64,000 nt of DNA from assembly GCA_021513715.1 (NCBI GenBank), contig CP084167.1:1728001-1792000 (forward strand), written 5' to 3'. The DNA is from Candidatus Heimdallarchaeum endolithica (lineage in GTDB: Archaea > Asgardarchaeota > Heimdallarchaeia > Heimdallarchaeales > Heimdallarchaeaceae). Every line of letters starts with the position of its first letter. Within the stretch, counting starts at the first letter, position 1. Below are positions 26,066-27,160 of this stretch, in pieces. Both the position numbers and the translations under genes were made by a program. Below the pieces are notes generated by a model, which had not been told where the DNA came from, did not search any database, and saw nothing but the letters and a program-made list of their open reading frames with translations.

Positions 26066-27160
26066 ATGATATGGACATCATTAGTTTACATCACGTCTGC
26101 AATTTCAATCTTACTAATCGTAATATTCTCAATGCTAAAATATCAATTTCAGATTTCTAGCCAAGCATTTTACTATTTTCTTTCGATGTTAATTTTCCTA
26201 ATAATTTGGTTTATTGCTGATTTGGGTTTGATTATAGCAAGTAATTCAAGAAATTCTAATTTAGCTAGAATTTTTTCTAAATTAGGTACAACATTTAGTA
26301 TGGTCGCAATGATATCAGTAGTTTTTTATACACAATTTTTAACATCAAAAGAGTTTTTTAACTCTCCACATGTTGTTATTTCATCATTTTTGCTTGGAGG
26401 TGTAATTGCACTTACATTATCTCCAGCATATGATATACAAGAAGCGATTGTAGATTCCACCAATATTTTTTACATCGCAAAAGTAAACACATCGTGGTTT
26501 ATTTTTGATACAGCCCTACCTTTATATGCAGGTTGTTTGTTAATTTATTATTTAACTAGACAAAAAAAGATTGTCCCAGAAAAACACAATTCAGCTCTAA
26601 ATTTAATGATTATTGGAACAATAATATCTTTTTTTGGAACTATTACAATTTTTCTTTCTCGAAAGGTAATATTCATTATTTTTGACAAAATTATTTTACT
26701 TCACGTTGAATTGCTAGCAGTTGCAATTGGAGCAGTTATTATGCTTATTGCAACTATCCAAGGAGGAGTAAAAGCATTTTACTATTCATCTAAAATTCAT
26801 TCAATTCATATTTACGACAATCTGGGAATGGATATATACACAGCAACTTTTGAAACAAAGAGAAATGTATCAACTAGCATTATTCCTGGAGTAACAAGTG
26901 CCATATCAGTTTTTGCTACAGATTTAATAGGAAAAGATGTGAAACCAAATGAAATATCATTTGGTGAATATTCGCTAATGATTGAAGCTTATGGAGAGAT
27001 AAATTGTTTTGTCTGTGTTGAGTATCCAACAACAAATTTCAGAAAAGGTATACAAAATCTGATCAAACAAATAAAAGTAAACCAGTCACATCAAGAGATT
27101 TCTGAACTGATTGAAGAAAACTTAGCTATAACTCCAATTTATCACAAGAATGCTAGCTAA
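26066..27160 (+). CDS. 7TM membrane sensor domain fused to a C-terminal longin-like domain
   Basis: Seven hydrophobic helices (about aa 3-231), then IHSIHIYDNLGMDIY...IIPGVTSAISVFA...NEISFGEYSLMIE...INCFVCVE, a b-b-a-b-b-b-a longin pattern. Confidence 0.7.
   Translation: MIWTSLVYITSAISILLIVIFSMLKYQFQISSQAFYYFLSMLIFLIIWFIADLGLIIASNSRNSNLARIFSKLGTTFSMVAMISVVFYTQFLTSKEFFNSPHVVISSFLLGGVIALTLSPAYDIQEAIVDSTNIFYIAKVNTSWFIFDTALPLYAGCLLIYYLTRQKKIVPEKHNSALNLMIIGTIISFFGTITIFLSRKVIFIIFDKIILLHVELLAVAIGAVIMLIATIQGGVKAFYYSSKIHSIHIYDNLGMDIYTATFETKRNVSTSIIPGVTSAISVFATDLIGKDVKPNEISFGEYSLMIEAYGEINCFVCVEYPTTNFRKGIQNLIKQIKVNQSHQEISELIEENLAITPIYHKNAS

Follow-up and report, generated by a model that had tools for sequence, protein, structure and literature searches.

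How Asgard archaea bring Rab-like GTPases to the membrane, and how they control them, is a question that gene order does little to answer, as their operons do not match GTPases to regulators (PMC10933270). These GTPases carry no prenylated tail, so a hold on the membrane by that route is unavailable to them (PMC10933270). In the genome of Candidatus Heimdallarchaeum endolithica, the gene of a protein here called P0001 raises this question directly, since its product combines seven transmembrane helices with a longin domain. An earlier note, made from the DNA alone, had read it as a proto-GPCR-like membrane receptor that signals directly to small GTPases and that may sense amino acids. Here we ask which parts of this reading stand and what P0001 might do. 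The 7TM-longin family, to which it belongs, is a concrete candidate both for recruiting tail-less GTPases to the membrane and for controlling them.

The P0001 gene, its surroundings and its family

The window is the whole stretch of 64,000 nucleotides that was analysed, and it forms part of one 3.33-Mb contig. The features discussed below are collected in Table 1. The P0001 gene follows a PF01619 proline dehydrogenase (PRODH) gene, its start lying 41 nt past the stop of the latter, and faces a convergent O6-methylguanine methyltransferase gene (Ogt) downstream. P0001 has no match in Pfam or NCBIfam, and its nearest relatives are hypothetical proteins of Heimdallarchaeaceae. Coupling of P0001 to an adjacent histidine kinase was considered and rejected, since the ORFs listed at 18-35 kb include none recognisable as such a kinase and the window holds no HATPase match.

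Table 1. Features of P0001 and its locus, with positions in the window (residue numbers of P0001 in parentheses)
Feature	Position	Strand	Remarks
Proline dehydrogenase, upstream neighbour	25101..26024	+	monofunctional TIM barrel; PF01619 E 7.5e-30; NF045947 169 bits, below the cut-off of 500
Spacer, 41 nt	26025..26065	+	no TATATAA box, unlike sister-genus orthologues, which have it at -29/-30
7TM-longin gene P0001	26066..27160	+	ORF, 364 aa; orthologue 91% identical in Ca. Heimdallarchaeum aukensis
Seven-helix membrane domain (1-239)	26066..26782	+	N-out/C-in; remote HisKA_7TM relative; GPCR-like shape
TM4 (101-118)	26366..26419	+	G111-G112; membrane part of the predicted dimer interface
Extracellular beta-hairpin TM4-TM5 (123-139)	26432..26482	+	most variable segment
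Longin domain (243-353)	26792..27124	+	shortened alpha2-alpha3 hairpin in P0001's clade
Longin alpha1 (272-288)	26879..26929	+	G275-x3-A279, small residues at both positions; aligned to Bet5 G46, S50
Longin beta3 edge strand (294-299)	26945..26962	+	in the dimer model, pairs antiparallel with its counterpart, centred on I297
Alpha/beta flavoprotein pair like PDB 1Y56	30648-33882	-	695-aa subunit also with Fer2_4-type, 4Fe-4S and BFD-like parts

Some neighbouring sequence differs from the same locus in genome G026. A TnpB/Cas12f-like ORF of 483 aa (27894-29345, +; PF07282, E 1.7e-10) lies between Ogt and Mrp, where a patch of the sequence is richer in GC; it is missing from the G026 locus, which suggests a recent insertion. 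Also missing there is a 314-aa ORF (19498-20442, -) that by appearance may be a DDE transposase. Positions 24320-25100 hold what is left of a decayed ORF whose 219-aa counterpart in G026 (L071:6306-6962) is still intact, with 75% identity over 28 aa.

A paralogue count, which the earlier note had proposed, gives eight intact 7TM-longin genes in this genome, with both domains detected in each, a probable ninth, and one broken copy in three pieces (genome 646054-647093, -). With a family profile at E 1e-10, 276 of the 301 Asgard genomes match; some of these matches are longin-only, and full-length matches occur in many families. In the tree, P0001 falls in a clade (98/95) together with P0003 and with sister-genus genes adjoining leucyl-tRNA synthetase. 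One family member (L013, genome G259) carries two interrupting TAG codons.

Longin domains are promiscuous in Asgard archaea and are joined to prokaryotic signalling domains, according to the main text of Liu et al. (10.1101/2020.10.19.343400), which among its longin fusions mentions no 7TM-longin fusion; the text on Asgard roadblock/longin dimers (PMC10933270) has none either. Literature on Asgard longins in combination with 7TM, seven-transmembrane, GPCR or HisKA_7TM, with Liu et al. covered by its main text, yielded no description of the family. The 7TM-longin protein is a real, conserved and unannotated architecture: both modules and Asgard longin fusions as such were already known, and it is their combination for which this literature gave no description.

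Two modules and a predicted homodimer

The full-length model of P0001 is a confident prediction of seven helices followed by the longin domain. Throughout the family, basic residues cluster in loops 1, 3 and 5 and in the C-terminal linker; this bias indicates an N-out/C-in orientation and thus a cytoplasmic C-domain. The earlier note had likened the seven helices to the 7TM sensor of histidine kinases, and the likeness holds at the level of profile and fold. Our N-domain profile aligns over 198 columns with six Pfam-scoring HisKA_7TM members (hhalign 84%, reversed control 0.5%), and the membrane domain superposes on predicted HisKA_7TM proteins, model against model, with an rmsd of 3.1-3.4 A over 215-222 residues. 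The cut-off of HisKA_7TM (PF16927) is unreached, weak matches being seen in 3 of 83 members (best E 3e-4). HisKA_7TM relatives bear PAS or GGDEF outputs at the position of the longin, which makes a sensor role for P0001 plausible.

The best solved matches of the membrane domain are class C GPCRs, namely GABA-B, GPR156, the sweet receptor and mGlu (Z 14.6-16, rmsd 3.7-4.2 A), at an identity of 6-11% in the structural alignments. Microbial rhodopsins and the adiponectin receptor reach Z 13-14, so that the GPCR scores lie near the general range of helical bundles and the match is one of shape, not descent. None of the GPCR families in Pfam matches any of the 83 members, a PDB profile search returned no natural GPCR, and DRY, NPxxY or other class A motifs are absent from the family alignment. 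The term proto-GPCR, proposed in the earlier note, can therefore be kept as an analogy: P0001 has the shape, the orientation and the input logic of a GPCR and fails GPCR membership by sequence. A microbial rhodopsin is ruled out, because TM7 offers no retinal lysine in its middle, with no lysine at residues 214-235 of P0001 and none conserved in the alignment.

Conserved polar residues occupy the outer half of the membrane domain (W48, S71, T75, D148, H213 and E215, with R199 in P0001's clade only), and the pocket residues are kept only in the nearest clades. Considering their position, it is possible that D148, H213 and E215, together with the clade-specific R199, could hold a zwitterion or a metal.

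Folded alone, the C-domain has longins as its top structural matches (Z 9.4-10.1, rmsd 2.7-3.2 A, 105-116 residues), as the earlier note had claimed from its topology. They include AP-3 sigma (Z 10.1, rmsd 2.7 A over 106 residues), Bet5 (Z 10.0, rmsd 3.1 A over 112 residues), AP-2 mu (Z 10.0), CPLANE (Z 9.9) and Ccz1 (Z 9.4), which places Mon1-Ccz1 among the best matches; roadblocks score at most Z 8.7 and cover less of the domain. Bet5 is also the best Foldseek match (E 5e-4, TM 0.68), and the top hits of the sequence profile, both weak, are Trs23 (E 0.004) and Bet5 (E 0.008), Sybindin being favoured as well. The earlier note had named a PAS or GAF fold as the result that would speak against a longin; neither occurs among the best 50 structural matches listed, all of which are longin or roadblock-type chains. 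Similar predicted C-domains (TM 0.72-0.75) are present in response regulators and DUF11 proteins of Thermoplasmatota and in OmpA-family proteins of cyanobacteria, so that this fold also serves as a fused module outside Asgard archaea.

The residues G46 and S50 of Bet5, to which the alpha1 motif of P0001 aligns, have a role in Rab binding. In 72 of 83 members, both positions of this G-x3-small motif are occupied by small residues, and the motif is general among Asgard longins. The spacing is shared by Mon1 (G250/T254) and Ccz1 (G106/G110), in which mutation abolishes exchange (PMC5216073). In P0001, it may serve helix or dimer packing only, with A279 inside the alpha1-alpha1 contact of the model. 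The Mon1-type alpha0, the SxDxR elbow loop and the Bet3 tail are absent from P0001; TM7 leads straight into beta1, and the alpha2-alpha3 link has about 6 residues without the elbow-loop motif. The GP motif before beta2 occurs in 0 of 83 members, where G254 is mostly followed by L, I or V. There is also no conserved arginine finger, the best Arg column (43 of 83) lying on alpha2 and the beta4-beta5 loop being variable. With both of these features absent, a GAP longin of the FLCN/NPRL2/SMCR8 type was ruled out as an assignment, and it is unlikely that P0001 acts as an FLCN/NPRL2-type GAP.

Two full-length copies of P0001 gave a homodimer model with a score of 0.55 (0.55, 0.57 and 0.49 in the individual runs), against 0.00 for the best of three controls. 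Of the proteins solved as pairs, 20 of 30 attain the mark for a dimer, as does 1 of 23 of those solved as single chains; with the alignment used here, this calibration is only rough. The contacts agree to at least 93% across runs, with a partner pLDDT of at least 76, and comprise TM4-TM4 around G111/G112, antiparallel beta3-beta3 centred on I297, and alpha1-alpha1. By symmetry, the dimer sheet should run parallel to the membrane, and its alpha1 face may point either to the cytoplasm or towards the membrane. In known longin dimers, beta3 and alpha1 form the interface, and the alpha1 pair is the GTPase-binding top (Levine et al., PMC3747258). The prediction of a homodimer on this very interface thus supports the idea of a GTPase platform; the favourable score may also stem from a resemblance to longin dimers of known structure. 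Many genomes, most of them incomplete, gave just one of the two sister paralogue clades with a P0001-type query. This fits a homodimer and does not favour an obligate heterodimer of P0001 and its nearest paralogue (genome position 686674).

GTPase and proline dehydrogenase genes

The genome contains 37 Ras-like matches, the nearest GTPase gene lying 42 kb from the P0001 gene. Five of the ten family loci in this genome are at most 10 kb from a GTPase, compared with 21% by chance, and three of these five form one cluster. Across other genomes, the neighbourhood survey proposed in the earlier note found no enrichment of GTPase genes beside family members: 6 of 33 distant loci have one within about 3 kb, against a background of 9-10%, and the six include three from one orthologous cluster. 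Guilt by association with GTPase genes was therefore set aside as cluster-driven in this genome and without enrichment elsewhere. In MK-D1, GTPases and their regulators rarely share operons (PMC10933270). Gene context neither supports nor excludes a GTPase link.

Two arrangements deserve separate mention. At L053 (genome 586000-605000), three 7TM-longin paralogues are interspersed with an Arf-like and a Rab-like GTPase, and a longin-tailed 665-aa protein lies just beyond. At L061, L062 and L063, all from one Loki-group genus, a tandem 7TM-longin pair has a convergent Rab-like GTPase gene 34-47 nt away.

The earlier note had also taken the short distance to the PRODH gene as a hint of amino-acid sensing. 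The distance itself is ordinary, with 40% of same-strand neighbours in this genome equally close. Moreover, the TATATAA box of the sister-genus orthologues (9 loci, all kin; background 1.4%) suggests that these probably have their own promoter. On both grounds, the gap was rejected as evidence for an operon. What remains of the hint is a second, proline-dehydrogenase-like enzyme in the same slot. PF01619 is found in 3 of 31 genomes of the family Heimdallarchaeaceae and in 0 of 25 genomes of the sister genus, where ten genomes instead have a 447-aa DAO-fold flavoprotein directly upstream of the syntenic 7TM-longin gene. The best solved match of this flavoprotein is 3AXB (full length, E 8e-60), which we take to be the dye-linked L-proline dehydrogenase of Aeropyrum pernix; the flavoprotein is most like an archaeal dye-linked L-proline dehydrogenase. 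It is unrelated to PRODH, is present in 21 of the 25 sister-genus genomes (L082:8059-9399, orthologues L146-L166), was not found in P0001's genus, and is complementary to PF01619 within the family. The exchange has the appearance of an in-place non-orthologous displacement, with two unrelated types of proline dehydrogenase, that of the flavoprotein being predicted, occupying one slot upstream of the 7TM-longin gene. Chance, which the lack of PF01619 in the sister genus might have suggested, was dropped as an explanation of the proline link since the upstream gene there is 3AXB-like.

This slot is located inside a conserved housekeeping synteny block of Mrp, LeuRS, Dak2 and ThrRS, which speaks against a tight link. 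In this genome's rearrangement, the PRODH and receptor genes shifted as one unit. At L091, where the orthologue adjoins PRODH, the order is 1Y56-like alpha/beta pair, PRODH, receptor gene. In the window, the 1Y56-like pair and PRODH are two candidate proline-oxidising systems within 9 kb, beside the Mrp Fe-S carrier. The adjacency of receptor and enzyme is split by inversion in G193 and G139, and in G202 and G092 the enzyme is kept and the receptor is absent. G184 has kept the receptor and lost the enzyme by an in-frame internal deletion, which could be an assembly artefact; about 85 aa of the 3AXB-like gene (L088:6545-6805) remain next to the intact receptor gene. In addition, 28 other PRODH loci examined have no 7TM-longin gene within 1.5 kb, and the neighbour of the sister clade of 7TM-longin genes is an amidohydrolase. 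A candidate proline-oxidising gene precedes the receptor gene in most of the close relatives. The proline link is loose, not obligate, and confined to one clade. Our best guess at the ligand of P0001's clade, and a doubtful one, is proline or a related imino or amino acid.

Proposed mechanism, alternatives and known systems

We propose that P0001 acts as a one-component sensor in the membrane, whose paired longins present a docking platform to a small GTPase; we give this prediction slightly less than an even chance. First, the seven helices would span the membrane with the N terminus outside and the longin inside, as modelled with high confidence. Second, two copies would associate by TM4 in the membrane and by beta3 and alpha1 of the longin; in the model, one continuous sheet runs through both longins and the two alpha1 helices lie next to each other. 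Third, by analogy with TRAPP, Mon1-Ccz1 and MglB, a small GTPase would dock on the alpha1 pair and would thereby be held at the membrane. Fourth, a small polar ligand bound among D148, H213, E215 and R199 might shift the helices and change the platform. A small GTPase as partner is consistent with the fusion of this longin type to Arf/Rag-like GTPases in this genome (hhalign 95%) and with its 37 Ras-like matches. Longin dimers are platforms, not catalysts, and extra catalytic parts are usually needed (PMC3747258); P0001 would more probably recruit a GTPase or modulate it weakly than act as a complete GEF. The fuller version, in which a GPCR-shaped homodimeric receptor binds proline or a related amino acid and both recruits and switches a Rab/Arf-like GTPase via the longin pair, is unlikely.

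The longin may instead be a means of pairing, exchanging partners through beta3 and alpha1 with the longins of TPR proteins, GTPases, ferredoxins and transporters, so that these are recruited, without docking of a free GTPase. The C-domain profile matches about 43 ORFs of this genome, and proteins with this longin type include fusions with TPRs, an MFS transporter, a 4Fe-4S ferredoxin, V4R and Arf/Rag-like GTPases (L126, L131, L139 and L141 for all but the TPRs), the longin of the Arf/Rag-like fusions being of the same type as P0001's (hhalign 95%). Tandem pairs of diverged 7TM-longin paralogues, present here and in Loki-group genomes, would fit such exchange as well; however, the TM4-TM4 contacts of the homodimer model would favour self-pairing, and we hold this explanation to be rather improbable. 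It is also unlikely that the seven helices are a constitutive anchor, which holds the longin platform at the membrane and senses nothing. Across the whole family, the membrane domain shows low conservation, with a mean identity of 15-24% per segment, as such an anchor might, but its outer-half polar residues are near-invariant inside clades, one helix would be enough for anchoring, and the HisKA_7TM relatives are fused to signalling outputs.

We give still less weight to a longin that acts as in the AP/COPI small chains or the longin SNAREs, binding peptides or coat-like proteins and not GTPases. The AP sigma and mu N-terminal longins do tie for the best Z (9.5-10.1), yet Bet5 and Ccz1 are tied with them within 1 Z unit, the sequence profiles favour the TRAPP-type longins and Sybindin, and the predicted dimer geometry is of the platform type. 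Finally, it is very improbable that P0001 is a membrane partner or regulator of the adjoining proline dehydrogenase, be it an anchor or a proline/redox sensor in proline catabolism: the gene adjoins PRODH in this genus and at L091 and the 3AXB-like gene in the sister genus, and PRODH was rearranged together with it, but the two enzymes are unrelated, which makes a shared physical interface with the receptor unlikely, and the inversions, the deletion, the absences of the receptor, the PRODH loci without such a neighbour and the amidohydrolase of the sister clade all speak against it.

If the proposed sensor platform is true, 7TM-to-GTPase signalling existed before eukaryotes, by a route unlike that of GPCRs. 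If its ligand-gated version is true as well, the archaeal lineage nearest to eukaryotes connects the sensing of amino acids with small-GTPase signalling through a single gene. To the question of GTPase recruitment and control, P0001 adds a predicted homodimeric platform with named residues, and a guess at the ligand from gene context.

Among known systems, the HisKA_7TM (PF16927) sensors share with P0001 a close fold, a remote profile match and an output domain placed after TM7; they are fused to PAS/kinase or GGDEF outputs, whereas the output of P0001 is a longin without an enzyme. Eukaryotic GPCRs, those of class C above all, share the seven helices, the N-out/C-in orientation and the hairpin in the second outer loop, as well as the dimer that is predicted for P0001; they activate G-alpha via the helical core, and P0001 instead has a fused longin. 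The longin GAP complexes FLCN-FNIP, NPRL2-NPRL3 and C9orf72-SMCR8 share the longin fold and, by analogy, a link to amino-acid signalling, but the GP motif and the arginine finger are theirs (PMC12290439) and both are missing from the 7TM-longin family. Dimer formation, predicted for P0001, is shared with the Asgard roadblock/longin dimers (PMC10933270). The closest comparison is with the longin Rab GEF platforms TRAPP Bet5-Trs23, Mon1-Ccz1, Fuzzy-Inturned and BLOC-3, which have in common with P0001 the longin fold, the G-x3-small motif and the beta3/alpha1 dimer, the last being predicted in P0001. These are soluble heterodimers with catalytic extras, such as the Bet3 tail or the alpha0 and elbow loop of Mon1 (PMC5216073), whereas P0001, which does without those parts, is predicted to be a homodimer fused to seven transmembrane helices.
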